A stretch of DNA of 64,000 nucleotides from an uncultured candidate division Zixibacteria bacterium (GCA_963801605.1 CAWDFP010000006.1:1-64000); one strand, 5' to 3'. Positions 4,078-61,185 are shown, counted from the stretch's first letter. Numbers and translations are program-made. The notes: generated from the letters alone by a model not told the origin.

Positions 4078-4166
4078 CGATGAGCACTGCCAGTACACGG
4101 GTAACCATACTGCACCCCTTTTCTCTTGTTATTGGGAAAAGGGGTGTGTTTTTTAGAGGTGTAACA

Positions 4167-4855
4167 ATGGCTTTTCAGGACCTCAGGGAATATATTGCTG
4201 CGCTTGAGTCTCAGCGTGATTTGAAACGAATAGCGGTGCCCGCAGATCCGGTACTTGAAATTACCGAAATAGCTGATCGCGCCGTTAAGGCGGGGGGACC
4301 CGCACTCCTGTTTGAACAGGTAACAGGCTCTCCCTATCCGGTGGCGATTAATTTATTCGGTACTTTGAAGCGCGCCTGCTGCGCTTTAGGTGTAACGAGC
4401 TTTGACGAGATAGCGGAGAGAATAGTTTCCTTTATTCCCCAGACGCCGCCCGATTCCCTTATGGACAAGGTAAAGTTCCTCTTTAAATTAAAAGAGATCG
4501 GCGGCTTTCAGCCAAAAAAAGTAAGCTCAGGCCCGGTCCAGGACGTTATCGAACGTACCCCCGACCTCTTCACGCTCCCGGTCCTCAAGTGCTGGCCGCA
4601 GGATGCCGGCCGCTTCATAACGCTGCCGCTGGTTATCACCGGAAATCCCCATACCGGACAGCAGAACGTGGGGATGTACCGCATTCAAATCCTCAGTGAA
4701 GATAAAGCCATCATGCACTGGCATGTGCATCATGACGGAGCAAACAATTTCCGCATGCATAAAGAAATGGGAAGGGACATGGAGGTTGCGATTGCCCTGG
4801 GAGGAGACCCGGCCACCATCTATGCGGCAACTGCGCCGCTGCCTCCGGGGCTTGA
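4167..4855 (+). pseudogene. ubiD: 5' half of a UbiD-family (menaquinone biosynthesis-type) decarboxylase, truncated at a junction
   Basis: MAFQDLREYI, LEITEIADR, GGPALLFE, INLFGT, CWPQDAGRFITLP, NVGMYRIQ, GGDPATIYAATAPLP; similarity stops at PPGL, roughly half the normal length. Confidence 0.8.
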
Positions 4856-6962
4856 AAATCTAGTTAATGGCATTGATCCGGGATTTGGATATGCTGTTCT
4901 AGCACAACTGATCTCACATGAAAAATATGGAAGGCATTGTAATGTAATTTTGACCACTAATTTCGATGATCTTGTGGCGGATGCATTATATTTATTTACG
5001 AATAAAAAACCCCTTATTATTTCTCATGAATCCCTTATTAGTTTTGCGAAAATTAGTAGAACTCGTCCAATGGTAATTAAGCTTCATGGCGACGCAAGGA
5101 TTTCCCCAAAAAATACCGAAGAAGAAACCACTAAACTTGATCAAACCGTAAAGTCGGTAACTAAGAGCTTCCTATGCGAAACAGGCATAATTTTTATTGG
5201 TTACGGAGGAAATGATAAAAGTATAACCGACCTTTTTAATAATTTTCCCCAAAAACCCTTTCCTTGGGGAATCTATTGGGTGGGTGATTATCTACCAGAT
5301 AATGCTTTTGGAAAGCTCTTAATTGATCATGAAATAATATGGGTAAAGCATTTTGATTTTGATGAATTGATGCTTCTGATCCGAGAGGAATTTAAATTTG
5401 AGCACCCTAATGATAAGAGATTTGACAAGATAATGGATTCTTACAATGAAACATTCGGTAAATTGAAAAATAAAATTGAGGGAAAAGCGGAATCTCCCGA
5501 AAAAGTGTTGTTAGAACAAGCCGCTAATAAAGCGGCAAAAGAATTTGCCAATTGGTTATCCGTTGAATTGGAAGCTAGGAAATATAAACTAATCGACAAA
5601 GAAAAAGCTGAAAAGATTTATCAAAATGGTATTATACTATTTCCAAAAAGTCGCCAATTATTAAATAATTATGGAAATTTCCTAAATGATATCCGTAAGG
5701 ATTATGATAAGGCAGAGGAATATTATAAGAAAGCCATAGAAGTCGATCCTAAATATGCACGGGCCATGAGTAATTTCGCCGTATTCCTGAAGGATACCCG
5801 TAAGAATTACGATAAAGCAGAGGAATATTTTATAAAGGCTGTTGAAGCTGACAACAATTATGCACCCGCTATGGGTAATTATGCAATATTCCTAAAAGAA
5901 ATCCGCAAGGATAACAATAAAGCTGAAGAATATTTTAAAAAGGCCGTAGAAGCCGACCCCGATTATGCGCCCGTTTTTGGCAATTATGCAATATTCCTAA
6001 AGGAAATTCGCAAGGATTACGATAAGGCGGAGGAATATTATAAAAAAGCCATTGAAGTCGATCCTAAATATGCTCGGGTTATGAGTAATTACGCTATATT
6101 CCTAAAGGATATACGCAAGGATTACGATAAGGCAGAGGAATATTTTAAAAGGGCTGTAGGGGTTGATCCTCAGATAGCTCAGGCATTAGGCAATTATGCA
6201 TTGTTTCTAAAGGAAATTCGTAAAGATTACGATAAGGCGGAGGAATATTATAAAAAAGCCATTGAAGTCGATCCTAAATATACCCGGGCCTTGAGCAATT
6301 ACGCCATATTCTTGTATGATATACGCAATGATAACAATAAGGCAGAGGATTATTTTAGGAGGGCTCTTGAAGTTGAACCTAAGGATGCTCGTGCTATGAG
6401 TAGTTATGCCTCATTTCTACGCGATGTCTTAAAAGATTACGATAAGGCGGAAGATTATTATAAAAAAGCCATTGAGGCCGATCCAAATTTCTCAATTATC
6501 CTAAACAGTTATAGCACTTTCCTGGGTGACATTCGTAAGGATTACGTTAAGGCTGAGGAATATTTAAAAAAGGCTATTGGGGCAGATCCCAATAACAATG
6601 TTGCCTTGTCAAATTACTGCGAATTATTATTCATTTTGGGAAGGCAGGAGGAAGCGATTGAAATTTTGCATAAGGTCCTTAGTATCTCGCCAGAAGGCGC
6701 GGCCATTCTTGATTGCTGGTTTTATTCTTACGCCCATTTACAAGAAGAAAAGGAACGCACTAAAGCCTTATCAAATATTAATAAATTAATATCTAAGGAC
6801 TTGAGAGCACCCAATGCAGATTTTGATAATAGTATTCAGTGCGCGATTCATAATGGCCACCCCGAACCCGAATTTCTCAAAGTCCTCGCTGATGTGATAA
6901 CGGATAAGGCTAAGGCCGAGGAATTAGATAAATTTCCGGTTTGGAAGAACATTAGCGCTTAA
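4856..6962 (+). CDS. SIR2-like domain plus TPR-repeat protein, N-terminally truncated and fused in frame to the ubiD fragment
   Basis: SIR2_2 motifs ILTTNFDDL, IKLHGD, IFIGYGGND, IYWV; the N-terminal GAGxS motif is absent; TPR array follows; markedly AT-richer than upstream DNA. Confidence 0.75.
5649..6593 (+). repeat. Nine tandem 105-bp (35-aa) TPR-like repeats
   Basis: Unit approx. YARAMSNYAIFLKDIRKDYDKAEEYYKKAIEVDPK repeated 9 times; long identical DNA stretches at ~6015 and ~6225. Confidence 0.9.
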
Positions 6963-16939: not shown

Positions 16940-17344
16940 TTAGATGCGGTTTCTCTGGAAATGCTTTTTATAATCGAGCTTTCCCAGATTCATATCGGAA
17001 AGGTTTGTTTTCAGATACTTTTGCAGGCCTTCCCAATAGGAGAATGCCGGGCAACATTCTTTGGTATCGCAAATGTTAATTTTGAACGGCCCCTGGGCGG
17101 TTTCAAGGATATCGAGGAATGAGATTTTGTCAGCGGATTTGGCCAGACGATAGCCGCCGGTTATTCCTCTGGAGCTGATCAAATAGCGTTTGTCGGTAAG
17201 GTGCTTGAGAACTTTAGCAAGGTATTCCCGAGGTATGCCCATATTCTCCGAAATCTCATTAATGCTTGCCGTCCGCGCTCCCTCGATGGAGGCGATGTAG
17301 ATCATGGCATGAAGCGAATACTCAGCTTTCTTAGAGATTTGCAT
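16940..17344 (-). CDS. Rrf2-family transcriptional regulator
   Basis: KAEYSLHAMIYIA, YLAKVL, SSRGITGGYRLAK, Cys cluster CDTKECC. Confidence 0.9.
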   Translation of the reverse strand: MQISKKAEYSLHAMIYIASIEGARTASINEISENMGIPREYLAKVLKHLTDKRYLISSRGITGGYRLAKSADKISFLDILETAQGPFKINICDTKECCPAFSYWEGLQKYLKTNLSDMNLGKLDYKKHFQRNRI

Positions 17345-17936: not shown

Positions 17937-17951
17937 TGGCACGCCAGTTGC
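17937..17951 (+). promoter_or_regulatory. Sigma-54 (-24/-12) promoter
   Basis: TGGCAC-GCCAG-TTGC is an exact consensus match about 90 bp upstream of the first gene of the operon. Confidence 0.8.
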
Positions 17952-18039
17952 CCTTAGTGATTGTGGCCAACCCTCAATTACCGGCCAAATAGGAGCCGGC
18001 ATGAAGGTTTAGAGGTTACAGAACCCAAGGAGGAAGGCA

Positions 18040-18408
18040 ATGACACGTTTTACAGCGCCAAAGAATAAGGCGGAAAAGACAGCGAAAAAGGCGGGCCTCA
18101 AGGTTGAGGTCACCAGGAAGAAACAAGATTCGGTATCGGAAGAGCCGGCTCAGTACCTGGGACTTTGCATGACCTGCATCCACACCAAGGACTGCGGATT
18201 CAGGAGAGATGTCTCCCAGGCCGTACTGGAATGTGATGAGTTTGATATTGGACAGACGCCTGAGACCGCTGTGATAGAGCAGCCGGCCGCCCAGCAAATC
18301 GCGCCGTCGACAGAATTCAAGGGACTTTGCATCAACTGCGATCTTCGGCAGGAATGCAAATTTCCGAAGCCGGCAGAAGGAGTCTGGCACTGCGAAGAAT
18401 ACGTTTGA
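18040..18408 (+). CDS. Small Cys-rich protein with two GLCxxC-x5-C-x12-C repeats
   Basis: GLCMTCIHTKDC...LECDEF and GLCINCDLRQEC...WHCEEY; aaggagg RBS. Confidence 0.75.
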   Translation: MTRFTAPKNKAEKTAKKAGLKVEVTRKKQDSVSEEPAQYLGLCMTCIHTKDCGFRRDVSQAVLECDEFDIGQTPETAVIEQPAAQQIAPSTEFKGLCINCDLRQECKFPKPAEGVWHCEEYV

Positions 18409-18464
18409 TCGTCATAATATAAGCCCCGCCGTTAGACCAGCAACCGATTTTTTGTGAAAGGCAA

Positions 18465-19316
18465 GTGATGAAAGCGGATGACATCGTGGGCATTCTGGAA
18501 AAGCATGACGGGGAGAGCGGCGGGCTGATCTCGATACTGGAAGCAATCCAGGCGAAATACAGCTACCTTCCCGAAGAGGCTCTCAAATTAGTGGCGAAAG
18601 AAACAGGTCGTCCTCTCGTAGATATCTACGGGGTGGCGACCTTTTATCGTTCGTTCAGCCTCAAGCCGCGCGGCAAGCATCTCCTGTCAGTCTGCCTGGG
18701 GACTGCCTGCCATGTCAGAAATGCCCCATCCATAGCAAAGGAAGTACAAAAGCAGCTTGGCGTCAAGCCGGGCGAGACTACTCCGGACAAGGAGTTTACC
18801 TTTGAGACCGTCAATTGCCTGGGCGCCTGTGCGCTGGGGCCGATTGTAGTCATTGACGGCCATTACTTCTCCAATGTCAAAGCCTCGATGGTAAAGGATA
18901 TTTTGGAGAAAGCTCAGCAAGGCCTCGACAACATCGGCGGAAAAGCCGGTGCGGGGGCTTTCCCGATTGAAGTTGGTTGCCCTCATTGCAATCATACTCT
19001 CATGGACGAGACTCATTATATCGATGGTTATCCATCGGTGCGGGTCACGGTATCATTTGGACGGCTGCACGGATGGCTGAGGCTATCCTGTCTTTACGGC
19101 CGAACTCCCGTGACTTATGAGCATCTCATCCCCAAAGATGCGGTCGTGAATTTTTTCTGTCCGCATTGCCATAGCGAGCTCAACGGCGCATCGCATTGCG
19201 CCGACTGCGGCGCCCCCATGGTGCCGATGATCGTGCGCCAGGGAGGGATTGTGCAGATCTGTTCCCGGCGTGGATGTAAGGGACACATTCTCGATCTGAC
19301 CGGCGTGAATATTTAG
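18465..19316 (+). CDS. NuoE/HydC-like [2Fe-2S] subunit with an extra C-terminal Cys-rich domain
   Basis: VCLGTACHV...VNCLGACALGP; extension containing CPHC, CPHC, CADC and CSRRGC. Confidence 0.85.
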   Translation: MMKADDIVGILEKHDGESGGLISILEAIQAKYSYLPEEALKLVAKETGRPLVDIYGVATFYRSFSLKPRGKHLLSVCLGTACHVRNAPSIAKEVQKQLGVKPGETTPDKEFTFETVNCLGACALGPIVVIDGHYFSNVKASMVKDILEKAQQGLDNIGGKAGAGAFPIEVGCPHCNHTLMDETHYIDGYPSVRVTVSFGRLHGWLRLSCLYGRTPVTYEHLIPKDAVVNFFCPHCHSELNGASHCADCGAPMVPMIVRQGGIVQICSRRGCKGHILDLTGVNI

Positions 19317-19330
19317 GAGAGGGAGAAACA

Positions 19331-22300
19331 ATGGCACAACTCAGATCGATAGATAATTTTAGAGCTCTTCGCGACCGCCTGATGTCTGTGATCGATCCCG
19401 AAATCCCCACCATTGTTATTTCGGCGGGGACTTGCGGACAGGCCAGCGGCGCAAACGATCTTATTAGAATCGCGAAGCGCGAAATATTGACTAAGAAATT
19501 AAACGGAAAAGTCCATCTGCGTATCACCGGCTGTCATGGATTCTGCGAAATGGAACCATCAGTCTTAATCGAACCCAGCGGCGTATTCTACCCTGAGGTT
19601 GGCCTTGAGAATATGGCGCGGATCGTTGAAGCGGTGGCGAAAGATGTGGTCCTCGAAGACTTGCCCTTTGTGGACCCCCAGACCGGACGGCCGGTGATAA
19701 GGCAGGTGGATATTCCGTTCTTTAAGAAGCAACTTCGCACCATCCTGTCACGAAACGAGAAAGTCGATCCCATCAGGATTTACAACTATATCGAAAACGG
19801 CGGTTATGCATCGCTGGCGGCAGTACTCGATATGGGCGATCCTGAATGGGTGACGTCAGAGGTTAAAGACCTCCGGCCTTCGCGGACGGGGCGGCGCGGG
19901 ATTCCCGACCGGCCTTAAATGGGAGTTATTAGCCAAACAAAACGGCAAGAACGGCAAATATTTAGTGTGCAATGCCGACGAGGGCGACCCCGGCGCGTAT
20001 ATGGACCGCAGCGTTCTTGAGGGCAATCCTCACAGCATTATCGAAGGGATGCTAATCGGAGCCTACGGCACCGGCGCCACGGAAGGCGTTATCTATGTGC
20101 GAGCCGAATATCCGTTAGCTATCAAGCATCTCATCATCGCTCTTCGGCAGGCGCGTGAACTTGGTCTTCTGGGCAAAAATATCCTCGGTACCGATTTTTC
20201 GTTTGATATCAGGCTGGTCAAAGGCGCCGGAGCTTTTGTATGCGGCGAAGAGACAGCATTGATTCGATCAATTGAGGGTAAAGTCGGCGAACCGAAGCAG
20301 CGTCCACCCTACCCGGTGCAGAAGGGTATTAATGGCAGGCCGACGGCGATTAACAACGTAGAGACCTGGGCGAATATCTCAGTCATTTTCGAGATGGGAG
20401 CTGAGGAGTTTGCCAAAATCGGCACCAAGAATAATTCCGGCACCAAAATTTTCAGCTTGGTCGGTAAAGTCAAATACACCGGTTTGGTTGAAGTACCGAT
20501 GGGCACCACGATCGAGACGATTGTAAATGAGATCGGCGGCGGACCATCGGGTAATGCCCGGATTAAGGCCGTTCAAACGGGCGGTCCATCCGGCGGCGCT
20601 ATTCCAGCAGCGATGTTCAATCTACCAATTGACTATGATAGTCTTGCCAAAGCGGGATCGATCATGGGTTCAGGCGGTATGATCGTCATGGATGAGAACA
20701 CCTGCATGGTCGATATCGCCAAATATTACATGAATTTCCTGAAAGATGAATCGTGCGGGAAGTGTTTCACCTGCCGCAAGGGCACTCAGCGGATGTTTGA
20801 AATATTGGACGATGTCACCAAAGGCAAAGCCAATATGGCCAGCTTGGATCTCTTAGAAGAATTGGCCGTAGTCGTTAAAGACACCACTATGTGCGGTCTG
20901 GGAAATACGGCGTCCAATCCGATTCTATCCACGCTGAAATATTTCAAGCATGAATACGAGAAACATATCTGGGATCAAAAGTGCGACGCGTTCGTCTGCA
21001 AAGACTTAGTTGGAGCCAATTGCCAATCGGCTTGCCCGATAGGGACCGAGGCCTGGCGTTATGTGGCTCATTTGGCTAAAGGCGAATATCAGGAAGCATA
21101 CGAAGCGATTCGCGAAACCAATCCCTTCCCATCGGTCTGCGCCAGAGTTTGCGATCACCGGTGCGAGAGACGCTGCAAGCTGGGAACCACCGGGCAGGAC
21201 CCGGTCGCTATCCGGGCGCTCAAGCGTTTCATCACGGACCGGATCGATCCTCTATCTTATAAGCCTGTCAGGGAATCAAACTTTAACGGTGACGCTCCTC
21301 ATGTAGCGATCATCGGTTCCGGCCCGGCAGGCCTGACCGCGGCGCATTATCTTTCGCTCAAGGGATACAAGGTTACGGTTTTCGAGGCTGAAAGCGAACC
21401 GGGCGGAATGCTTACCTGCGGTATACCATCTTATAGATTGCCGCGCGAAATCCTGAGGAAAGAGATCGAATCGTTAATCGATGAGAATGTCACTGTCAAA
21501 TGCAACAGCGTTCTCGGACGCGATATCACAATCGACGGTCTCTTCAAAAAGGGTTTTAAGGCGGTCTTCTTAGCCCTGGGCGCTCACAAGAGCCGCAAGT
21601 TGGGAGTCGAAGGCGAGGATATCAAGGGAGTCTACCCGGCCATTCAATTCCTCAAGGATTTTAACCTGAGAGGAAAACGGACGGCCAAGGGACATGTCGG
21701 TGTTATCGGCGGCGGCGATTCCGCTATCGATGCCGCTCGAGTGGCGCTTCGCCAAGAGGGCGTTAAGAGCGTTACGATACTCTATCGCCGAACCCGCTCC
21801 GAGATGCCGGCACTATCCGAGGAAATCGAAGCCGCCGTTCAAGAGGGTATCAAACTTGAAACTCTGGTCTCCCCTCTTAAGATCGAAGCCAAAGAGGGCA
21901 AGCTGACCGGAATCAGCTGTATCAAAAACAAGCTTGGTGAACTCGATGCCAGCGGCAGACGCAATCCTGTGGCGATTCCCGGAACGGAATATAAAGTGCC
22001 GCTCGATACGCTCATTATCACCATTGGCGACGTGCCCGATATCGATTTCATCTCCCAAATGGGAATTGAGATCACCGATAAGGGCACAGTCAAATACGAC
22101 CGCGAGACGCTTTTGACCAGCAAGCCCGGAGTATTCGCAGGCGGCGATGTCACCACCGGACCTAATACCGTGGTTCAGGCAATCGCAGCCGGCAAGAAAG
22201 CGGCTAAGATGATCGAGCGCTTCATCGCGGGTGAAACTCTGCGGCAGCCATCGTTAGCTTATCTTCCCGCCCACTATGTAGAACCGTTTACACTCAGCGA

Positions 22301-22493
22301 GGAAGAGGCAAAGGACGCCAAACGCGCTGTCCCACCCAGCATGCCGATAAAAGACAGACGGTCGAGTTTCTCTGAGGTAGAGATGACTCTATCGGAGGAC
22401 GAAGCTGTTTTCGAGGCTCGGCGTTGCCTGCGGTGCGACCTGGAGTTCACACAAAATCAGGATACTGAAAGCGTCGGAGGCAAGGTAGCGTGA
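19331..22493 (+). CDS. NuoF/HydB-like FMN/NADH subunit fused to a GltD-like FAD/NADPH domain, one frameshift near 19866
   Basis: [21 protein letters not shown] (after removing one base), [39 protein letters not shown]; then CQSACP, NPFPSVCARVC, IIGSGPAG, VIGGGDSAID, EARRCLRC. Confidence 0.88.
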
Positions 22494-23167
22494 TAAACTT
22501 AAGAATAAATGGATTAAAGGTCGCAGTCGAGGAAGGCTCGACCATATTAGAAGCCGCACGCTTTCTGGGATTCCCGATTCCTACCTTATGCCACATGGAC
22601 GGCCTGACGCCATACGGCGCTTGCCGGCTGTGCGTGGTTGAGATTGGAGTCGGCCCCAAGGCGAAACTGGTATCATCATGCACCTATCCGGCCGAGGAGG
22701 GTATGGTTGTCCGGACTGCCTCGAACCGGGTAATAAGAGCGCGCAAAATGGTGATTGAGCTTCTCCTGGCCACTTGCCCGCAATCGAAAGTGATTCAGGA
22801 CATAGCCTCATCGCTTGAGGTTCGCCAGCAGCGTTTCAAACAGGAGCATGAGGACTGCATTCTATGCGGTCTCTGTGTGCGGATGTGTTCGGAGCAGATG
22901 ATGGCGAAAGCGATCGGTTTCCGCGGGCGTGGGGAAAAGCGCAGCCTGGGAACACCGTTTGATGCTAAATCGGAAGTCTGCAGACTGTGCGGCGGCTGTA
23001 TTTATGTTTGCCCGGCCTGCCAATTGAGATGCACCTATACCGAAAAAGACAGCGCGATCTGCGGAGGCTGCGCCAATATCAGTCCGCCATGCATTGAAAA
23101 AGAAAAGTTCGACGACATGATGTGTTATATGAAGCCTTGTGTTGCCTGTGAAATTAAAAAGGATTAG
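22490..23167 (+). CDS. Short NuoG/HoxU-like Fe-S subunit with an 8-Cys tail
   Basis: IPTLC...GACRLCVVE...SC [2Fe-2S]; CILCGLCVRMC and CRLCGGCIYVCP; no catalytic domain. Confidence 0.85.
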   Translation: MINLRINGLKVAVEEGSTILEAARFLGFPIPTLCHMDGLTPYGACRLCVVEIGVGPKAKLVSSCTYPAEEGMVVRTASNRVIRARKMVIELLLATCPQSKVIQDIASSLEVRQQRFKQEHEDCILCGLCVRMCSEQMMAKAIGFRGRGEKRSLGTPFDAKSEVCRLCGGCIYVCPACQLRCTYTEKDSAICGGCANISPPCIEKEKFDDMMCYMKPCVACEIKKD

Positions 23168-23180
23168 AGGAGGATATTAA

Positions 23181-24827
23181 ATGTCACTTTCCCGGATTAA
23201 CGCCTCAGCCGCAACCTTGACCAAAAACAGAACTGAGGGGTCCGTAGTCCCTGCTTCGGGCATGTGCGTGACATGCGTGGACGGTTGCATCGGAATGTGC
23301 GAGATAGGCAAATCGGCCTACAGGGGACACGAGGTCATCTACCCTCAGCCGTTTGGGGTCATCACGACCGCGGCCGAGAAACTTTACCCAGTCGATTATT
23401 CCCATTTTAACATTATGGGTACCGCCGTAGGGGCGCATGGTATTGCCGCCGACAGCGATAAAGCAATTTTCCCGGCTGTCAATCTTCAGGTTATTATGGG
23501 ACACGATAAGGGACTCAAGTTTCGTTACCCCTGGATCATCCCCGGTATCGGTTCAACAGATATTGCCAAGAACAACTGGGAAGGCTTAGCCATCGGCTCG
23601 GCTCTGTCCGGCACCGGCCTGACTATCGGCGAAAATGTGGCCGGCATGGATCCCGAAACGATCATGAAGAACGGCCGTGTTGTCGATACCGCCGATCTTA
23701 AGCGGCGCGTGAAGCTTTACAAAGATTATCAGCATCACGGCTATGGCGCCATCATCGTCCAGGCCAATGTTGAGGACACCCGGTTAGCGGCGCAGGAATA
23801 CGCCATCGAAAAGCTGGGCGTCGAAGTTGTAGAAATGAAGTGGGGCCAGGGCGCCAAGGATATCGGCGGCGAAGTAAAGATTAAGAGCCTCAAGAAAGCT
23901 CAGATGCTTTATGAGCGCGGCTATATCGTTCTGCCGAATCCGACAGATCCAAATGTCATCGCGGCTTTTGAGCGCGGCGCATTTAAGGAGTTCGAGCGTC
24001 ACTCCCGCGTTGGGATGGTATCGGAGGAATCGTTTGCCGAGCGAGTAGACCAGCTTCGCAAAGCCGGCGCCAAGTATGTGTTCCTGAAGACCGGCGCGTA
24101 TCGTCCGGCGGACTTAGCTCGCGCAGTAGCTTTTTCATCGAAATATAAAATTGATCTGCTCACGGTCGATGGCGCCGGCGGCGGCACCGGTATGAGCCCC
24201 TGGCGCATGATGAATGAGTGGGGCGTTCCACCGGTTGAGCTTCACACCCTGTTATATCAATATGTCAAACAGCTTAGCGACAAGGGTAAATATGTACCAG
24301 CGATCGCCGTGGCCGGCGGCTTTACATTCGAAGATCAAATCTTCAAAGGCCTGGCGATGGGCGCGCCGTTTGTTAAGATGGTCGGTATGGCTCGTGCTCC
24401 GATTGCCGCCGCTATGGTTGGTAAGACAATCGGTCAGGCAATTGAAGCCGGTGAGCTTCCTGTTTACGTGGAACGTTTCGGCGGCAATAAGGACGAAATT
24501 TTCGTGACAGCCAGCGAACTTCGCAAAGAACTTGGCGAGAAAGAATTCGACAAGATTCCGTGCGGCGCACTCGGTCTTTACACTTACTACGAGAGACTGG
24601 CCCAGGGACTTCGGCAGCTCATGGCCGGCAGCCGTAAATTCTCGACGGAGTACATTTCGCGCGACGATATTGCGGCGCTGACTCACGAAGCATCCGATCT
24701 TAGCGGCATTCAATATATTATGGATGTCGACAAAGAAGAAGCAGAGAAAATTCTCAGCGCGAACGGGCATCGTACGGCAGTCAAACAGATCGGCAGTGCG
24801 AAGAAGCGCGTGACGCGCACGAGATAA
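23181..24827 (+). CDS. FMN-binding glutamate synthase family protein (stand-alone domain)
   Basis: EMKWGQGAKDIGGE, LKTGAY, TVDGAGGGTG, AGGF; N-terminal CVTCVDGCIGMC. Confidence 0.85.
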   Translation: MSLSRINASAATLTKNRTEGSVVPASGMCVTCVDGCIGMCEIGKSAYRGHEVIYPQPFGVITTAAEKLYPVDYSHFNIMGTAVGAHGIAADSDKAIFPAVNLQVIMGHDKGLKFRYPWIIPGIGSTDIAKNNWEGLAIGSALSGTGLTIGENVAGMDPETIMKNGRVVDTADLKRRVKLYKDYQHHGYGAIIVQANVEDTRLAAQEYAIEKLGVEVVEMKWGQGAKDIGGEVKIKSLKKAQMLYERGYIVLPNPTDPNVIAAFERGAFKEFERHSRVGMVSEESFAERVDQLRKAGAKYVFLKTGAYRPADLARAVAFSSKYKIDLLTVDGAGGGTGMSPWRMMNEWGVPPVELHTLLYQYVKQLSDKGKYVPAIAVAGGFTFEDQIFKGLAMGAPFVKMVGMARAPIAAAMVGKTIGQAIEAGELPVYVERFGGNKDEIFVTASELRKELGEKEFDKIPCGALGLYTYYERLAQGLRQLMAGSRKFSTEYISRDDIAALTHEASDLSGIQYIMDVDKEEAEKILSANGHRTAVKQIGSAKKRVTRTR

Positions 24828-24884: not shown

Positions 24885-24912
24885 ATAGGGGCGTTCGAAA
24901 GAATGCCCCTAT
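24885..24912 (+). terminator. Hairpin downstream of the operon, probable terminator
   Basis: ataggggcgttc-gaaa-gaatgcccctat followed by a T-rich tract. Confidence 0.6.
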
Positions 24913-25136: not shown

Positions 25137-26163
25137 TTACGCCTTTATTGGTACCTTCTCCAATCGCGAAAGGATAGCATCGGTAAATTCCGTGGTGGTG
25201 GCAGTGCCGCCCAGATCACGGGTGCGAATCTTACCGTCCTCGAGAATACCGGCAATCGCTCTTGAAATGTTAGCCGCGATATCCGGCATACCCAGATGCT
25301 CCAGCATCATGAAGACCTGAGAATATGAAGGCTATCGGGTTCGCGATATTTTTGCCAGCGATATCGGGCGCGGAGCCGTGCACGGCCTCGAAGATGGCGT
25401 AATCATCACCAAGATTGGCCCCCGGCACCACTCCCAGGCCACCCACCAGACCGGCGCAGAGATCGGAAATTATATCACCGTAAAGATTGGTCAGCACCAG
25501 AACCTCGAACTGGCTGGGATTGAGCACCAATTGCATGGCGCAGTTATCAACGATGACTTCACGGTATTCGATATCGGGATAGTTCTTGGCTACTTCCTTG
25601 GTAGCGTCAAGAAACATGCCATCGGTAAGTTTCATAATATTAGCTTTATGTACCGCGGCAACCTTGGTACGGCCATTTTTTCTGGCGTTTTCGAATGCGA
25701 ATTTGGCGATCCGACTGGAAGCCAAATAGGTGATAACTTTTATCGATTCTGTCACACCAGGCGCAATCAGATGTTCGATTCCAGAGTAAAGGTCCTCGGT
25801 ATTTTCGCGGACGATTATCAAATCGACATTATTGTAATGAGTAGGGATACCCTTAATCGAGCGCACCGGACGGAGATTAGCGTAAAGCTGAAGCTCTTTT
25901 CGGAGTGTTACGTTGGCGGATGAAAAACCCTTGCCCACAAACGTGGTTAGAGGCCCTTTATAGGCGACCTTGTTTCGCCGAATCGATTCTAACAATACGG
26001 GAGGCACCGGGACACCGTAATCTTTCATGGCCTCCAAACCTGCCGGCATAGTCTCCCATTCGATTAGAGCTCCAGCCGCCTCAAATATGCGGAGCGCTGA
26101 GGCGGTTATTTCGGGGCCTATGCCATCGCCCGGTATCAATGTCACTTTTTTTTTCATAGCCAT
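25137..26163 (-). CDS. NAD-dependent isocitrate/isopropylmalate dehydrogenase family protein, one frameshift near 25311
   Basis: IPGDGIGPEI, RENTEDLY, HKANIMK, NLYGDIISD, EAVHGSAPDIAG; corrected tail MMLEHLG...RTRDLGG. Confidence 0.88.
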
Positions 26164-49902: not shown

Positions 49903-50988
49903 ATGGCACAGGAATCGCTTATCGAATCTGAACCTAAAATTAAAAAGGAAAGCGCAGACGAAAGAAAGCCGCAAACACTGGGGCTTATTTCCAAACTCGC
50001 TTTAGGGGCAGTTGTTTGGGTCATCCTGTATTATTATCTGCAGCCTCTGACCGCTTGGCTATCAGTTTCCGTTCTGGGCCTATCACCCGAAAATCGACTG
50101 GGAAGCGCCTTCATTTTCTTTGTCTACGAAGCTCCGAAAGTGTTAATGCTTTTGGCTGGTGTGGTATTTATAGTTGGCGTCGTCCGTTCATTTTTTACCC
50201 CTGAGCGTACCCGCCAGATGCTCGTCGGACGGCGGGAGCTGGCAGGCAATTTCATGGCCTCTGCTTTGGGTATAGTCACCCCCTTTTGCTCCTGCTCGGC
50301 TGTTCCGCTCTTTATCGGCTTTGTAGAAACAGGCGTTCCTCTTGGAGTCACCTTATCGTTTTTGATTGCCGCTCCCATGATAAATGAAGTTGCTTTGGTG
50401 ATGCTACTGGGTATGTTCGGCCTAAAGGTTGCGGCCATTTATGTATCCACCGGCCTGGTTATTGCCATCATATCCGGGTTTGTCATTGGACGGCTACGCC
50501 TTGAACGCTATGTTGAGGAATGGGTGCATACGGTAAAGCTGGGGGATAGCCATTCGGACGAAATCAAATACACATGGCGGGACCGAATTGAAATCGGCAC
50601 TATCGCCACCAAGGAAATCGTCGGCAAGGTCTGGCCTTATGTATTGGGCGGTATAGCCGTTGGCGCTTTCATTCACGGCTACGTACCTGAAAACCTGATG
50701 GCATCATTTATGACTAAAGGCTCCTGGTGGACCGTACCCCTGGCAGTCTTATTGGGCGTTCCAATGTATTCTAATGCCGCCGGAATTATCCCCATCATGC
50801 AGGCATTGTTAGAAAAAGGGGTACCGCTTGGCACCACGCTTGCTTTTATGATGGCGGTCATCGGACTCTCATTGCCCGAGACGATTATTCTTCGGAAAGT
50901 GCTTAAGATTCAGCTTATCCTGATATTTGTTGGAATTGTGGCAGTAGGAATAACAATAGTAGGCTATCTTTTTAATTTAATATTGTAA
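49903..50988 (+). CDS. ArsP/DUF318-family permease
   Basis: TPFCSCSAVP, FLIAAPMINE, GVPMYSNAAG, GLSLPE. Confidence 0.88.
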   Translation: MAQESLIESEPKIKKESADERKPQTLGLISKLALGAVVWVILYYYLQPLTAWLSVSVLGLSPENRLGSAFIFFVYEAPKVLMLLAGVVFIVGVVRSFFTPERTRQMLVGRRELAGNFMASALGIVTPFCSCSAVPLFIGFVETGVPLGVTLSFLIAAPMINEVALVMLLGMFGLKVAAIYVSTGLVIAIISGFVIGRLRLERYVEEWVHTVKLGDSHSDEIKYTWRDRIEIGTIATKEIVGKVWPYVLGGIAVGAFIHGYVPENLMASFMTKGSWWTVPLAVLLGVPMYSNAAGIIPIMQALLEKGVPLGTTLAFMMAVIGLSLPETIILRKVLKIQLILIFVGIVAVGITIVGYLFNLIL

Positions 50989-53002: not shown

Positions 53003-53458
53003 TTATCTGCCGTAGATATCCAATAGCTGAAGCCTGGTGGCGTCGAGGCGTTCTGCCATGATTTCCGTGAATATCTGCATCATTTTAAATCCAAGTCCGT
53101 TATCCTTCTCGCATTTTGTACGAAGGCATTTACCGTCAAGAGCGATGACCCGGGTTTGCTCAGTTGCCTTAGCGTCAAAACGCCATTTATATGGTGGAAT
53201 AAGCCACGACCAGCCAACGACGTCACCCTCGGTGCAAGTTTGAATGCAAATAGACCCTTGCCATGGGGAGAAAACTTCCACAATCACACGACCATGTCGG
53301 ATGACATAGAAAGTGTTAGCCTCCTCACCCTCTTTGAAAATATATTGATCAGAATTAAAGACAACATTGGAGGCGCATCCCACCATGAGTTTGATTTCGG
53401 CATCATTGAAGCTTTTAAAAAATGGATGAGATATTAGCAAAGGTTCAATTGTTTCCAT
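53003..53458 (-). CDS. Stand-alone cyclic-nucleotide-binding (Crp-like, no HTH) protein
   Basis: IFKEGEEANTFYVIRHG, GDVVGWSWL, RLDATRLQLLD. Confidence 0.85.
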   Translation of the reverse strand: METIEPLLISHPFFKSFNDAEIKLMVGCASNVVFNSDQYIFKEGEEANTFYVIRHGRVIVEVFSPWQGSICIQTCTEGDVVGWSWLIPPYKWRFDAKATEQTRVIALDGKCLRTKCEKDNGLGFKMMQIFTEIMAERLDATRLQLLDIYGR

Positions 53459-53972
53459 TTTTTTGCTCCTTATCATTGACTTTTTGCCTGATTGCCAGGC
53501 TATTCCCACCATTAAAACCGATCCAGTTTAGGATTCGATTTATGGCTGGTTCCAATGCTGCCTCTACCAGAGGGGTCAATTTCTCACTTAATGTCTGGAT
53601 ATCCATTGCTTCTATAGCAAGGACGTCAATCCTATCCGGCATGCTAATTCCCATTTCGCGACCAAATTTCAAAGCCGTCGGAAGGTTAATCTGATGACTG
53701 CAGGTCAAATTCTTTGAGGGTACAAAATGGCCCATTTCAGTAAAATGAAGAGTGCCCGGAACCGCTTCATCGGTTATGATAGTATCAACAATTAGCGCCC
53801 GTTCTCTGTCTTTCAATAAGTCAATGAGATTTAGCCCGCCCAAGGGCGAGAATTCAATATCTACTCCTCCATTAAAATCGTATTGCTCTATAAGATTGCG
53901 GGCAATTTTATAGCCGAATGAATCGTCTGACAAAATCTCATTCCCCAGGCATAATACAAGCGCTGGTTTCAT
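53445..53972 (-). CDS. Hydrogenase maturation protease
   Basis: LCLGNEILSDD, IVDT, SHQ. Confidence 0.88.
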   Translation of the reverse strand: MKPALVLCLGNEILSDDSFGYKIARNLIEQYDFNGGVDIEFSPLGGLNLIDLLKDRERALIVDTIITDEAVPGTLHFTEMGHFVPSKNLTCSHQINLPTALKFGREMGISMPDRIDVLAIEAMDIQTLSEKLTPLVEAALEPAINRILNWIGFNGGNSLAIRQKVNDKEQKNGNN

Positions 53973-55454
53973 TAGTTCCTCTTGATAACCTTGATTTTCT
54001 CGCCGCTGGCAGCATCATGAATAATTAATTCAAGAGGCATTTGCCCCGGCAATGAGTGAGTTGCGCAACCAAAGCAGGGGTCATAAGCTCGGAAAGCCAT
54101 CTCGATTCTATTGAGCATGCCGTCAGTAATTTCGCACCCCTTTTTAATCATACCCTCAGCGGCGCGCTTGATTGACATGGTAATCGCGGCGTTATTGTTC
54201 GTCGTCCCGACAATAAGATTAGCCTCGGTGATAATGCCGTTTTTATCCGTCCGATAGTGATGAGTTAAAGTCCCTCGAGGCGCTTCTACTATTCCAACTC
54301 CTTCACCAACAATGCTTGTGGGAGGATCAAGAATATGATCTGACGTGATCTCATCATCCTGCGCCTGTAAGAGAACCGACTCGCAAGCGAACATAAGCTC
54401 CACAACTCGCGCCCAGTGAGTCGCCAGAGTGGAATTTACCGGTATTTTGCCGGAACGATCCCCGGTCAGCGTTTCATAAAATCTTTCATATTCCGCTTGA
54501 GCCAGCGGTGTAGCCATGCCATCGGATACATTAAGACGCGAAAGGGGAGTTGCTTTATACACACCCGAATCCATACCGTCGATAAATCCCTTCCAACCGA
54601 TCTTTTTTAGGAATGGATATTTCAAGTAACTGTATGGCTCAACATGCTCGGCGACATATTCAAGATATTGTTTCGGTTCATATTTGGCGTGTTCTGTGCC
54701 GTCAGGCGCTGTTACGCGAACCATTCCGTCATAGAAATGAACCTTGTTGTTTGAATCTACCAGCCCCATATTATAAGTCTTATGGGCATATGAATCTGAG
54801 AGGATAAGATCGATATACGCCTTATTTGCCAGGACGACATCATTCAAAACTTTAATGGTAAATTTGGCAAATTCAACCATCTCCTGCCCAATCTTAATCA
54901 TTTCCTGCTGTTCTTCTTTGGTCACCCGTTTCGACATCCCGCCGGGAAGGGCGGTAACGGGATGAACCTTCTTGCCGCCGATTATTTCGATGACCCTCTG
55001 GCCGCGGGCTCTTTGGGCAATGACTTTCCTGCCGGCATCAAGGCCAACTTTGGCGATTACACCCAGGATATTACGCTCGGCAGGGAGGAGCATCTGGGCC
55101 ACAGACAAAATCAGGGCCGCCGAGGGCATAAAAATGCGTCGTATGGTCGCCGGCATAGAAACCGTTATATACCAATTCTCTCAGCTTAAAGGCCGCCGAT
55201 GGGATTTTTGCTCCATAGACTGCATCGGCGGCCTTGGCTGCTGCCATGTGGTGTGCATCCGGGCAAACGCCACAGATGCGGGTTGTGATGCGACACATTT
55301 CTTCAACGGGACGGCCCACGCAAAATTTTTCAAAACCTCGAAGTTCAGGTACCTGGAAGTAGGCATTGGCGAGATCTCCATCGTCATTAATAAACAAATG
55401 TATTTTACCGTGGCCTTCGAGGCGGGTTATCGGATCGATTACTATCTCTTTCAT
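53972..55454 (-). CDS. mvhA: [NiFe]-hydrogenase large subunit, group 3c MvhA-like, frameshift near 55085
   Basis: [38 protein letters not shown] plus a cleavable tail. Confidence 0.88.
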
Positions 55455-56426
55455 CTTTGTGCTCTCCTCAACATTGAATCGGGAAGGCTAAAGCGATAAA
55501 ATGTGCCGATGGGATCGGGAATCGTATCGATTATTGACTCTATTTCCTCCGGATTGGTTGAATCGATGATGCTGGCAATCGCGGAGGCCATTTTGGCTCC
55601 CTGGTCGCGCACATTGGAAGGCATCCCGTAACAGCCGCGGCAGGGGACTCCAGCCTTAACGCATTTGGCGCCGCATCCGCTTCTGGTAGCCGGTCCCATG
55701 CAAACTATGCCCTGCTCCATCAGACATAAATTTGGATCTGTCACCTTTTCAAACGGCCTGATAAACTTCTTTATCTTTCTTGATATTCCTCTCTCGCGGA
55801 CATTCATCACAGCAACTTTTTTCGCTCGCGCCCAAGACAGTCCCTTTGGGCGGAAGTGGCTTTCCGTTCTTTCAGGATATCGATAACCGCTCCAACCACC
55901 GCTGCGATCTGATCGGATTGCGGCGGGCAACCGGGAATGATGTAATCAACTTCCACAGTTTGCCCCAAAGTGCGCACCGTATTCCACAAATCGGGAATTC
56001 TGTATTTCACCCTCAGGGAGCGTTATAGATCGGTTGAGGTATCGTTTTTGTTGGATTATCTACAGAAGGCGAATTTAGATAGACGTAGTCAAATATTGCC
56101 TGCTTGCTATAAAGATTGGCCAGACCGGGAATGCAACCTTCGGCAGCGCAACTTCCAAAGGCACAAAGGACCACCGATTTCTGCCGCAGGAGCTTGGCGA
56201 TTTCATAGTTTTCATCGCTGCGAATTGCGCCGTTGAATAGTGTCAGCGTAATTGATTTATCGGGCATTTTTCTAACATCGTCGTACTTAAAATCAAGGGC
56301 ACAAGGCCAGAATATGGGATCAAAAAAGTCTACCACGCCAAGTATCTTCTCTTCAATATCAAGTATGGCGATATCGCATCCCCCACAAGAAGCAGCCCAA
56401 TATATTGCTAACTTTGGTTTTGCCAT
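55451..56426 (-). CDS. mvhG: [NiFe]-hydrogenase small subunit MvhG-like, several frameshifts
   Basis: WAASCGGC, AFGSCA, IPGCPP, CLMEQG.VCMGPAT..GC, PCRGCYG spread over successive frames. Confidence 0.85.
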
Positions 56427-56890
56427 AACATTTCTCCCAACGCCTTAAAGTCAACAGTCTCTTCTTTTTCCGGCGTAAAATTCAGTTCTTTCAACTGAAG
56501 CGGCCCCAATGCGCGGATATGCTCGGTAAATTCAGTAACGATCTTCTGAAAACGCCCTCCCTCTGATGCCGAGACCCATTCCAGGCGCAGCCGCTCCGAT
56601 TCGATACCCATGCTTTGGAGAATCCTTTTCGTAAGAGGCATCCGGCGCATGCATTTGTAATTCCCTTCCACATAGTGGCAATCGCCGGGATGGCAACCGC
56701 AGACAAGTATCCCATCGGCGCCTTTGCTGAAAGCGTGCAATATGAAGCCGGGATCGATTCGCCCGCTGCACATAACCCTGATACTTGTCATGTTTGGAGG
56801 ATACTTCATACGGGCGGTACCGGCCAGATCGGCGCCAGTGTAGCTGCACCAGTTGCACAAGAAGCCAACTATTTTGGGTTCAAAGCTCAT
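56408..56890 (-). CDS. mvhD: MvhD [2Fe-2S] subunit
   Basis: FLCNWCSY, RVMCSGR, GCHPGDCHY, WVSASEG. Confidence 0.92.
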   Translation of the reverse strand: MSFEPKIVGFLCNWCSYTGADLAGTARMKYPPNMTSIRVMCSGRIDPGFILHAFSKGADGILVCGCHPGDCHYVEGNYKCMRRMPLTKRILQSMGIESERLRLEWVSASEGGRFQKIVTEFTEHIRALGPLQLKELNFTPEKEETVDFKALGEMLWQNQS

Positions 56891-58645
56891 GATAGTATTC
56901 CTTCTATTTGAGCGTAAATCTGATCGTCGGTGAAGTGCTTGGCAACTATCGCGCCCGACGGACATGCTGCTACACATGTACCGCAGGCTTTGCACATAGC
57001 CGAGTTGACCGAGCTTTTCTTTTTCTCGCTATCAAATTCAATAGCATTATATGAACAAAGATCATTACAGATTCGGCATCCACTACATAAATCTTCAGTG
57101 ACCACCGGCAAAGGCGGCATCCATCAATATCTCTTTCTGACAAAGAAGTTTTAAGGCGTGAGACGCCGCCGCCCCGCCTTGCGCTACAGTATCGGGGATA
57201 TCCTTTGGCCCCTGGCAGGTGCCGGCGAGATAGATGCCATCTGTTGTAGTCGAAACCGGTCCGAGCTTGGGGTGAGCCTCAATAAACCAGCCATCAGCTC
57301 CTGTGGAAATGTTGAATTTGCGGCCAACCTCCTTGGCATCTTTTCGGGCTTCAAGGGCAGTGCAGAGGATTACCATATCGACGGGGATCTCGCGGAATTT
57401 CCCGACCAGCGTATCTTCGCAACGAACTAGAAGATATCCTTCCGATCCGCGATGGCTCGAAGATGGGACAATCTCAGCCCCTTTGCCGCGAATGATATTT
57501 ACATTCTCTTCCAGTATCCGCTGATAGAACTCCTCATAACCTTTGCCGAAACTTCTGACATCGATATAGAGCTGATAGACCTCAGCGCTGGTTTTCTCCT
57601 TAACAAGGTGCGAGAACTTGAAAGCGTACATACAACAGACGCGGCTGCAATACTTATGATAATTTTGATCGCGACTTCCGATGCAGTGAAGAATGGCGAT
57701 TGCGCGCGGTTCCTCACCATTCTCAAGAACGATTTTACCACCGGTCGGTCCCGCGGCGTTGTTCATCACTTCAAATTCCTCTGACGTGATAACATTGGGG
57801 TACTTACCATAACCATATTGTTTCATAGGAGAAGGATCAAAATTATCAAAGCCGGTGGCCATAATGACCACGCCAACATCCACTTCCTCAAATTGCTCGG
57901 TATCATCGTAATGAATGCAATCCTTGGGGCATACCTTGGAGCAGACTTTGCATGCCCCGGTCTTAAAATGAATGCAGAATTCGGGGCTAATTCGTGGCAC
58001 GTTGGGGACTGCTTGCCTGAATGGAAGCGAAATTGCAGAATTGGGCCCCAGCGCCACCTCGTGATGAATTATCTCGCGACCGTCAATGTCCTCTAATCTG
58101 ATATGTCCCGTAGGACAGACTTTGGCGCAGGCACCGCAAAGAATACAGTCCTCGCTGGCATCATCGAATGGAGTTGAGACCTTTCTATACACTCCCCGGT
58201 CGCTGAAGGCCAGAGCATGAGCGCCAACAATTTCATCGCAGACACGTACACACAGTCCGCACAGAATGCAAGTATCGTCGCCCGTACCCCAGCGCGGCTT
58301 TTCTATCCCGAACTGTTGGGCCAACTGCTGCAGAACCGGAGCTGGAGCGCAGCGGCTTAACAGCATTTCCAAATTAACCCTGCGAGCATTCTGGACACGA
58401 GGCGTATCGGTGAATATTTTCAAACCCTTCCAGACCGGATAATTACAGGATGTAACTATCTTCGACCAGTCCTTATCATCACGTGCCTCAACCACGCAAA
58501 TACGGCAGGCGGCATAGGGCGTCATGTAGGGATAGTAGCAAAGGGTTGGGATATTCACGCCCAGTGTCCTGGCGGCCTCAAGAACAAACGTTCCCTCTTC
58601 AACTTCAATCGGATGCCTGTCTATTTCTATTTTTATCATGCTCAT
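56887..58645 (-). CDS. hdrA: Fusion of a NuoG/HoxU-like Fe-S domain to the C-terminal half of HdrA, frameshift near 57112
   Basis: IPTLC...ACRICVVE, CILCGLCVRVC, CILCGACAKVCP; then PFRQAVP, VGVVIMATGF, HCIGSRD, YCSRVCCMY, AGTCQGPKDIP and a terminal 2x[4Fe-4S] domain. Confidence 0.88.
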
Positions 58646-58654
58646 AGATTTCTC

Positions 58655-60673: not shown

Positions 60674-61185
60674 TCTTCTTCCTCCTCATCGCCAGCCGCT
60701 TCCTTGCCGCCAAGCTTTTCAATCATCCGCTCGACTTTGGACGCAGTCATGTTACCGTAGTAGATATCATTGGCAGTAACAAGCGGCCCCAGCGCACAAG
60801 CGCCAAGGCAGTTTACCGTTTCCAGACTGAAACTCTGGTCTTTGCTCGTCTCGCCGGCTTGGATACCAAGCGTGGTTTCAAGTCTATTAACAATAACATT
60901 CGCTTGCCTGACATGACAGGCAGTACCGGTACAAACACAGATATGATTTTTCCCTTTAGGCTTTAGGCTGAATGTGCGGTAAAAAGTAGCCACACCGTAG
61001 ATTTGTGCTATTGGAAGCCCCATCTTCTGCGCCACCAGTTTTAATGCTTCTTTGGGAAGGTAGCGATAATGCTTTTGAATATCTTGCAAGACCATGATTA
61101 GGGCCGTTGGCTTGGCCTGATAGTGATCCACAATATTGTGAATGGCTTGTTCGAGATCATAGTTATCATTGATTGCCAGGCTCAT
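60670..61185 (-). CDS. NuoE/HydC/HoxE-like [2Fe-2S] subunit
   Basis: YGVATFY, VCTGTACHV, VNCLGACALGP. Confidence 0.9.
   Translation of the reverse strand: MSLAINDNYDLEQAIHNIVDHYQAKPTALIMVLQDIQKHYRYLPKEALKLVAQKMGLPIAQIYGVATFYRTFSLKPKGKNHICVCTGTACHVRQANVIVNRLETTLGIQAGETSKDQSFSLETVNCLGACALGPLVTANDIYYGNMTASKVERMIEKLGGKEAAGDEEEEE

Follow-up and report, generated by a model that had tools for sequence, protein, structure and literature searches.

The stretch of DNA analysed here, referred to as the window, comprises 64,000 nucleotides (nt) of an uncultured candidate division Zixibacteria bacterium (GCA_963801605.1, CAWDFP010000006.1:1-64000). Between positions 17,937 and 24,827 it carries an operon in which a redox module of the NuoE/NuoF/NuoG kind, one subunit of which is fused to a GltD-type domain, precedes the gene for an FMN TIM-barrel protein remotely related to glutamate synthase (GltS). 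The module subunits are named BfuC (NuoE-like), BfuB (NuoF-like) and BfuA (NuoG-like) below, after the bifurcating (Bfu) family. Relatives of the FMN protein were collected at E <= 0.001 and formed at least 8000 clusters when grouped at 90% identity. Screening one genome per species yielded at least 598 loci, the best 80 of which underlie the neighbourhood counts for close relatives, and more distant clades were taken from a metagenome scan seeded with a 53%-identical FMN paralogue. The genome to which the window belongs is 86.9% complete.

Operon layout and predicted products

The operon is preceded by a sigma-54 type −24/−12 promoter, TGGCACGCCAGTTGC at 17937-17951 (+), which matches the consensus TGGCAC-N5-TTGC exactly. 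Two exact matches occur in the 64-kb window, and when one mismatch is allowed the number (four, against a chance mean of 3.78) shows no excess. The other exact match (50829-50843, +) lies within the open reading frame (ORF) of an ArsP_1 permease (49903-50988) and is therefore probably due to chance. Of the 58 relatives having enough upstream DNA, 14 carry the stricter motif TGGCA[CT]N5TTGC no more than 400 nt before the first gene. This corresponds to ∼35 times the background in the relatives' loci (0.016 per kb), and half of all 28 matches on both strands of these loci fall at this one site (14 matches). Thus, the promoter at 17937-17951 is credible, because its motif recurs upstream of the relatives' operons far above background. 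The first ATG (18040), preceded by a Shine-Dalgarno-like stretch, lies 89 nt downstream of the motif. Six plus-strand ORFs follow at spacings of −4 to 56 nt, the operon genes either overlapping or sitting 13-56 nt apart; they represent five genes, because the gene for the NuoF::GltD fusion is split by one extra base. A predicted intrinsic terminator-like hairpin at 24885-24912 (+), 58 nt past the stop codon of the FMN gene and consisting of a 12-bp stem with six G-C pairs and a T-rich tail, closes the operon as a strong terminator-like element.

The first gene (18040-18408, +) encodes a small Cys-rich protein of 122 residues with two C-x2-C-x5-C...C repeats. It belongs to no known family: neither Pfam nor NCBIfam models matched it, and an Atlas search returned only clusters annotated as "hypothetical protein". 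A homologue sits at the same position in 45 of the 80 loci. The second gene (18465-19316, +) encodes the BfuC-like subunit (PF01257, E 1.1e-46, residues 10-150), a NuoE/HydC-type thioredoxin-like [2Fe-2S] protein with the C1 cluster, whose C-x4-C and C-x3-C pairs can be seen in the translation. The C-terminal extension of the subunit, ∼130 residues long, carries four Cys pairs and resembles zinc ribbons, the models of which match below their cut-offs. The third gene (19331-22493, +), read as ORFs at 19331-19918 (195 residues) and 19965-22493 (842 residues), encodes BfuB of the HydB/NuoF type fused to a GltD/NfnL-type domain. Its larger part comprises Complex1_51K (from profile position 33), NADH_4Fe-4S, Fer4_20 and Pyr_redox_2 and carries the motifs DEGDPGAYM and GGPSG. 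The smaller part has weak similarity to 2Fe-2S ferredoxins (34.5 bits, below the cut-off); it may correspond to B5, the N-terminal [2Fe-2S] domain of BfuB, although only three Cys and one His are conserved in it. The fourth gene (22490-23167, +), the start of which overlaps the preceding stop by 4 nt, encodes a short BfuA of the NuoG N-terminal type. Its 225 residues comprise a [2Fe-2S] domain (Fer2_4), two [4Fe-4S] motifs (a dicluster, Fer4_7) and a C-terminal tail with eight Cys, without a hydrogenase or molybdopterin domain; its best solved relative is WorA (9mqx_A, E 2.1e-45, residues 2-193).

The sequence-only reading of this DNA had recognised the exact promoter, the motifs and the GltD-like fusion of the NuoF subunit and the lack of a hydrogenase or molybdopterin domain in the NuoG-like subunit, all of which was borne out. 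Its five co-oriented genes are indeed present on one strand, but that they are read as six ORFs, with a frameshift near 19868 in the NuoF::GltD gene, had escaped it.

Several features of the module suggest that it is of the bifurcating kind. The NuoF half of BfuB (residues 1-350) scores 465-496 bits against NfnB, HydB, NiFe-HydB, StnB and WorB, compared with ∼285 bits against NuoF of complex I. The GltD half (residues 348-825; TIGR01316 gltA with 330 bits, under the cut-off of 471.75) has its nearest matches in the NADPH domains of NfnA (E 1.9e-103) and StnC (E 1.5e-86). The Cys residues of the B1 [4Fe-4S] cluster are conserved, and Complex1_51K and NADH_4Fe-4S represent the NuoF-type FMN/NADH site. 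Here and below, statements from the literature refer to those portions of the cited papers that were available. The B2 site, formed by a Cys before B1 and a His-x5-Cys-x4-Cys motif after it, is absent from non-bifurcating homologues (PMC9304861). In the window's BfuB and in 19 of 19 aligned relatives, the His and both Cys of this site are kept, and the upstream Cys is also there. The closest solved relatives together with the B2 motif thus support the assignment of the module to the Bfu kind, as far as sequence can tell.

The C-terminal part of BfuB exists in two forms. In 14 of 75 relatives the protein has 615-640 residues and ends in the canonical ferredoxin-type domain with two [4Fe-4S] clusters, without a GltD part, which argues that the GltD domain is an optional replacement of this B3/B4 domain. 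The window and five aligned long forms lack four of the eight B3/B4 Cys columns that the short forms have, and continue instead with the GltD-type Fer4_20. The long form may branch to NADP(H), or to ferredoxin through the NfnL-type clusters.

The last gene (23181-24827, +) encodes the FMN TIM-barrel protein (548 residues), with the motif C-x2-C-x3-C-x3-C near its N-terminus, which is nearly invariant in the family. Its sole Pfam match is PF01645, the FMN (synthase) domain of GltS (51.6 bits, cut-off 20.4), and this match is partial (profile positions 185-304 of 369); no NCBIfam model matches the protein. An AlphaFold model based on a 21-row alignment has an FMN-type TIM barrel (mean predicted local distance difference test 82.8, predicted template modelling score 0.84). 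Two catalytic residues of GltS, the Lys of QGAK and the Glu in the GEGG loop, have counterparts in the FMN protein. In an hhalign alignment with GltB the signature loops are paired (the VQ..R.GV strand, K-x-x-QGAK...GG, a His-containing turn and D/SG..GGTG..P), the FMN protein contributing VQ-N-ED-R, QGAK-GGE, ERH and DG-GGTG-SP. Overall, the protein is only a remote relative of GltS.

Conservation, regulation and gene neighbourhoods

The operon is real, very widespread and apparently unstudied. The best 120 relatives of the FMN protein are 82-93% identical to it and their source names span many phyla; clustering at 50% identity leaves 1091 representatives, many of them fragmentary. In the window's phylum 120 of 285 genomes carry the protein, as do 32 of 201 genomes sampled from another phylum. 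Wherever the contigs of relatives reach, the order Cys-rich / NuoE / NuoF(-GltD) / short NuoG / FMN is kept. By tblastn, the short BfuA gene adjoins the FMN gene in 78 of the 80 loci, the remaining two having less than 130 nt of upstream DNA. Among 59 metagenome loci that extend 800 nt or more upstream, 53 have it immediately before the FMN gene. The earlier proposal that the FMN protein belongs with the NuoE/F/G-like module is thereby well founded. The reverse also applies: among the strong, full-length BfuA matches listed for the 285 genomes (E down to 3e-141; 8e-135 for the window's own copy), the FMN gene is adjacent on the same contig, at a gap of 23-41 nt in the 12 pairs compared by eye. 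Matches at E about 1e-55 to 1e-65 are weaker and correspond to the N-termini of hydrogenase/NuoG-type proteins of 440-640 residues.

The two proteins are also the most conserved ones, with median identities to the window of 81.6% (FMN protein) and 79.1% (short NuoG, 77 loci), compared with 66.9% for NuoF-GltD, 62.5% for NuoE, 55.9% for the N-terminal part of NuoF and 35.5% for the Cys-rich protein. Identity of ∼80% across phyla suggests strong purifying selection on a central reaction.

In 43 of the 80 loci an NtrC-type response regulator (REC, sigma-54 AAA+, HTH_8) is encoded upstream in the same orientation, preceded in 33 of the 80 by a GAF/HisKA/HATPase kinase. A sigma-54 activator, for which a search had been proposed, was found in the window's genome: an orthologous activator/kinase pair (66-67% and 51-56% identical) is present on another contig (C7), where the operon is not downstream. 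This genome has 17 matches to the activator domain PF00158, and the sigma-54 domains PF04552 and PF04963 were not found in its 87%-complete assembly. At the position where relatives have the kinase/activator pair, the window has a gene for an Rrf2-family (IscR/NsrR-type) regulator (16940-17344, −), divergent from the operon and separated from it by a 590-nt spacer. In 10 of the 80 loci, a protein of ∼1000 residues with PPDK_N and a C-terminal nucleotidyltransferase domain is encoded adjacent to the operon and downstream of it. Over its first ∼120 residues this protein shares 41% identity with a stretch of the sensor region in the operon-linked histidine kinase, and in the window's genome its gene (C7:317870-323748, locus L099) adjoins a glutamate dehydrogenase (GDH) gene.

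The proposed survey of the FMN family's neighbourhoods showed, besides the module and the NtrC-type activator, genes of nitrogen metabolism. A GDH gene is adjacent in 10 of the 80 closest loci. The link to glutamine synthetase (glnA) is seen only in clades more distant than these. In a clade of 68-74% identity to the window's FMN protein, 35 loci retain the NuoE/F/short-G module, and in at least eight of them glnA lies directly upstream in the same orientation; eight is a lower bound, because several loci are cut by the 6-kb flank. In this glnA-linked clade the Cys-rich gene was not detected, the NuoE matches stop at about residues 146-156 with the C-terminal extension undetected, and the sigma-54 motif was found in none of eight glnA-nuoE spacers and in neither of two regions upstream of glnA. 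A clade of 56-66% identity (14 loci) lacks the module; four of its loci have glnA together with an ANTAR response regulator, three ANTAR only and one glnA only, and those with neither are mostly short contigs. One further locus combines a divergently oriented module with a GAF-ANTAR gene, and in one genome a 42%-identical paralogue sits between a stand-alone gltD and canonical gltBD.

In the clade of the 53%-identical paralogue, a Haem_oxygenas_2-type protein is encoded alongside in four of the five loci with upstream DNA. One locus (L103; G494:C19, 2700-12400, −) contains a kinase, an NtrC-type activator, a Haem_oxygenas_2-type protein, the 53%-identical FMN paralogue, a RidA-family protein and a GDH-type protein of 916 residues that is fused to an Asp/Glu racemase-like domain. 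RidA beside the paralogue remains a lead, because it was seen only in L103 and in one of six metagenome loci of the clade.

No amidotransferase or GltB C-terminal domain is encoded in the operon, as had been stated from the sequence, and the same holds for the 87%-complete genome as a whole: PF00310 (class-II glutamine amidotransferase) and PF01493 (GXGXG) gave no match, in a scan that was positive in 13 of 14 and 14 of 14 reference genomes, respectively. The genome has two glutamine synthetase loci, three GDH loci and no strong PF01645. In the window's phylum, none of the 285 genomes has PF00310, carriers and non-carriers of the operon alike, so that this phylum says nothing on whether the operon replaces GOGAT. 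Among ten other operon-bearing genomes, PF00310/GltB is present in one. In the 201 genomes of the other phylum (at least 90% complete), 32 have the FMN protein and 68 have PF00310. The two are negatively associated: PF00310 is present in 4 of 32 carriers of the FMN protein, compared with 64 of 169 non-carriers, and both occur in four genomes where ∼11 would be expected (Fisher p = 0.004, uncorrected for kinship). Of the four double carriers, one has a weak match and two have the most divergent FMN homologues.

Candidate reactions

The reading to which we give an even chance is that the operon encodes a Bfu-type, NADH/NADPH(/ferredoxin)-driven, glutamate synthase-like enzyme that lacks an amidotransferase. 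Its most likely reaction would be 2-oxoglutarate + ammonia + 2 e− = glutamate, under nitrogen control. The five products would assemble into one iron-sulfur flavoenzyme of the Bfu (HydABC-like) family, in which NADH is bound by BfuC together with the FMN of BfuB. On BfuB, the GltD/NfnL-type domain (two [4Fe-4S] clusters, FAD and an NADPH site) would take the place of the ferredoxin-type C-terminal domain. The short, WorA-like BfuA would relay electrons to the FMN protein, which they would enter by its N-terminal four-Cys cluster. At the FMN, the imine of 2-oxoglutarate and ammonia would be reduced to glutamate, which amounts to the "synthase" half-reaction of GltS without its glutaminase half. 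The sigma-54 promoter would be driven by a dedicated NtrC-type two-component system, as expected, since the enzyme is proposed to serve nitrogen assimilation. The observations concern gene and domain content, co-occurrence, regulatory elements and neighbourhoods; that the products form one complex, with this electron path, substrate and direction, is what we infer from them, and energy might be coupled by bifurcation or confurcation.

Several observations weigh against this reading. The fold of the FMN protein is at least as good a match to type-2 IDI, alpha-hydroxy-acid oxidases and flavocytochrome b2 as it is to GltS. The top Foldseek matches of the model (lactate monooxygenase, glycolate oxidase, flavocytochrome b2, type-2 IDI and ferredoxin-dependent GltS) lie close together, with GltS (1ofd_A) at E 5.2e-9. 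In VIA-align of these Foldseek matches, type-2 IDI and flavocytochrome b2 were superimposed with Z about 26 (root-mean-square deviation 3.4-4.3 over ∼315 residues), and the 50 matches listed, at Z 25-26, are all type-2 IDI, hydroxy-acid oxidase or flavocytochrome b2 types, GltS not being among them. Searched singly against solved structures, the sequence matched neither GltS nor anything meaningful at E <= 1. The family profile found designed TIM barrels first and GltS at E 0.1, and hhalign against the canonical GltB FMN domain gave a probability of 29.6%. Within the aligned loops, the Gln six residues past the QGAK Lys of GltS is a Glu in the FMN protein, and the 3Fe-4S motif C-x5-C-x4-C, present in the canonical GltB compared, is absent from the protein and its family. 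In none of the 80 closest loci is glnA found within 8 kb. The three GDH loci of the window's genome could make glutamate from ammonia anyway. Furthermore, 165 of the 285 genomes of the phylum have neither the FMN protein nor GltB, so the absence of GOGAT in this phylum is independent of the operon. As to the module, the B3/B4 domain of BfuB is the ferredoxin docking site in Nfn-Bfu, where loss of the B4 cluster abolishes bifurcation (PMC12018979), and the long form lacks this domain. Finally, the BfuB gene of the window is frameshifted and reads Ala in place of a conserved Cys, both of which are taken up below. Of the earlier idea of a glutamate- or imine-converting, perhaps bifurcating enzyme, the Bfu kind of the module and the links to nitrogen genes stand; the kinship to GltS turned out to be remote, and the canonical ferredoxin docking site is missing from the long form.

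A different substrate is a reading that we consider possible, if on balance unlikely. The same complex would then act on another 2-oxo, 2-imino or 2-hydroxy acid or on another amino acid, and the nitrogen genes nearby would reflect amino-acid catabolism or a regulatory link. The remote sequence relation to GltS and a fold equally near to alpha-hydroxy-acid oxidases and type-2 IDI are in keeping with it, as are the company of the 53%-identical paralogues (the Haem_oxygenas_2-type protein and, in one genome, RidA, of the imine deaminase family, with the GDH-racemase fusion) and the GDH adjacency, which would be redundant with a second glutamate-forming enzyme. However, the core loop motifs of GltS align, with the Lys of QGAK and the GE of GEGG among the matched positions; the module has a GltD-type fusion partner, as in GltS; and glnA leads eight loci and, with ANTAR, accompanies the clade that lacks the module. 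Moreover, a protein kept at ∼80% identity across phyla would be expected to act on a central, invariant substrate.

Irrespective of the substrate, the operon might be decaying in this particular genome, so that the frameshift and the exchange of Cys for Ala are real and the enzyme is not made; this is improbable, and compatible with either reading of the reaction. In the three frames of 19820-20020, the first frame turns to nonsense past "SEVKD", and the next frame continues as canonical NuoF from the GLRGRGGAGFPTG motif. In relatives the fusion is a single ORF of 1057-1080 residues with 57 nt between the aligned blocks; the window has 58, which places one extra base near 19868. The Cys of the GGPSGG-C motif (about 20694-20700, +; residue 244 of the frame starting at 19869), which all 19 aligned relatives (14 short and five long forms) share, is Ala in the window. 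Yet the rest of the operon is intact, including an FMN protein 91% identical to its nearest relatives, and other conserved genes are split in the same assembly, namely two GDH genes and one activator gene elsewhere in the genome and, in the window, genes of a second redox cluster. The frameshift is therefore probably an assembly error. The second cluster (53003-63620, −) encodes HdrC/HdrB-like proteins (Fer4_8, CCG), an HdrA-like fragment, NuoE, NuoF, a NuoG-type protein of 516 residues, MvhD (FlpD), the small and large subunits of a NiFe hydrogenase and a HycI protease, and looks like an Hdr/NuoEFG-linked NiFe hydrogenase; its NuoF is cut into at least four ORFs and the large hydrogenase subunit into two, indicative of an indel-ridden assembly. 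Public reads were represented by three runs of one wetland-metagenome sample (shares 0.15, 0.08 and 0.04). At 90% likeness, these runs gave only relatives of 90-95%, no contig spanning 19868 and no indel rows, and no RNA run was among the matches listed.

It is most improbable that NuoE, NuoF::GltD and the short NuoG on their own constitute an NADH-NADPH(-ferredoxin) transhydrogenase like Nfn-Bfu or Stn, with the FMN protein separate and merely co-transcribed: the GltD-type part is nearest to NfnA and StnC and the NuoF part to NfnB, but the NADPH domain of Nfn and Stn is on subunit A and not on B, the 14 relatives without the GltD domain still have the FMN gene and an unchanged gene order, no pair compared in the window's phylum had the short BfuA type away from the FMN gene, and BfuA (79%) and the FMN protein (82%) are the most conserved products while the other subunits drift (36-67%).

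Should the operon encode the glutamate synthase-like enzyme, it might, tentatively, be the missing glutamate synthase of the many anaerobic lineages in which glutamine synthetase is found without GltB. The Bfu core would pool NADH with NADPH (long form) or with reduced ferredoxin (short form) for ammonia assimilation; in reverse, it would make reduced ferredoxin from NADH by means of exergonic imine reduction. Ammonia would then be converted to glutamate without the ATP cost of GS-GOGAT; the Bfu family would gain a new class of third substrate, and nitrogen assimilation a new route. A glutamate-forming enzyme would also change how nitrogen assimilation is reconstructed for sediment and wetland anaerobes, many of which are otherwise scored as lacking GOGAT, and would add an amino-acid-forming reaction to flavin/iron-sulfur electron bifurcation.

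Two further features of the window deserve mention. Convergent with the end of the operon lies a gene of the isocitrate/isopropylmalate dehydrogenase family (25270-26163, −), which may be frame-cut, as its Pfam match ends at profile position 297 of 348; its product, if an isocitrate dehydrogenase, would supply 2-oxoglutarate. At 4080-6962 (+), an ORF of 960 residues is an odd fusion of UbiD N-terminal and Rift-related domains, SIR2_2 and many TPR repeats.

Comparison with known systems

A match to an already characterised enzyme, which had been named as grounds for abandoning the proposal, was not encountered in the literature searched. Full-text searches yielded no description of the operon; the Bfu clades tabulated in PMC9304861 (Supplementary Table 1), outside their scope, could include it under a different name. 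The available portions of PMC9304861, PMC12018979, PMC12318220, PMC11216029, PMC3362086, PMC6037941, PMC6349859 and PMC8097209 do not describe it, and the catalogue of third substrates of the Bfu family, as far as it is given in those of PMC9304861, contains no such enzyme.

Closest in architecture is WorABCSL, the tungsten aldehyde oxidoreductase-Bfu of Acetomicrobium mobile (PDB 9MQX), in which a BfuABC core with a short A subunit serves separate catalytic subunits (PMC12318220), an arrangement termed "Type 2" Bfu (PMC9304861). The likeness extends to the Cys-rich C-terminal tail that the window's BfuA also has. The catalytic module differs: in WorABCSL it is the tungstopterin-containing WorSL nanowire (PMC12318220), in the operon a single FMN TIM-barrel protein of the GltS superfamily. 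WorB retains the B3/B4 ferredoxin-type domain, whereas the window's B subunit has the GltD/NfnL domain instead, and the window's clade adds the small Cys-rich protein and the Cys-pair extension on BfuC.

Nfn-Bfu and Stn (NfnABC of T. sibiricus, PDB 9N5U; Stn of S. ovata, PDB 8OH5) share with the operon a HydBC-like core joined to an FAD/NADPH domain of the NfnL/GltD type (PMC12018979, PMC9304861), and among solved structures they match the two halves of the window's fusion protein best. In these enzymes, the NADPH domain is located within subunit A and there is no further catalytic subunit (PMC12018979, PMC9304861). In the operon, by contrast, it sits at the C-terminus of BfuB, where it replaces B3/B4 and is dispensable (14 short forms), and the FMN GltB-like subunit is always present.

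Archaeal hybrid [FeFe]/[NiFe] hydrogenase complexes are alike by description, as they contain a HydB-type subunit with a GltA (glutamate synthase small-subunit-type) domain. Their fusions partner hydrogenase subunits and not a GltB-like FMN protein (PMC11216029). With glutamate synthase itself, both the NADPH-dependent GltBD and the ferredoxin-dependent enzyme (PDB 1OFD, 1EA0, 2VDC), the operon has in common the PF01645 FMN barrel and a GltD-type unit with [4Fe-4S], FAD and NADPH sites. It differs from GltS in having no amidotransferase, central or GXGXG domain, and in that electrons would be delivered to the FMN protein by a NuoEFG/Bfu module.

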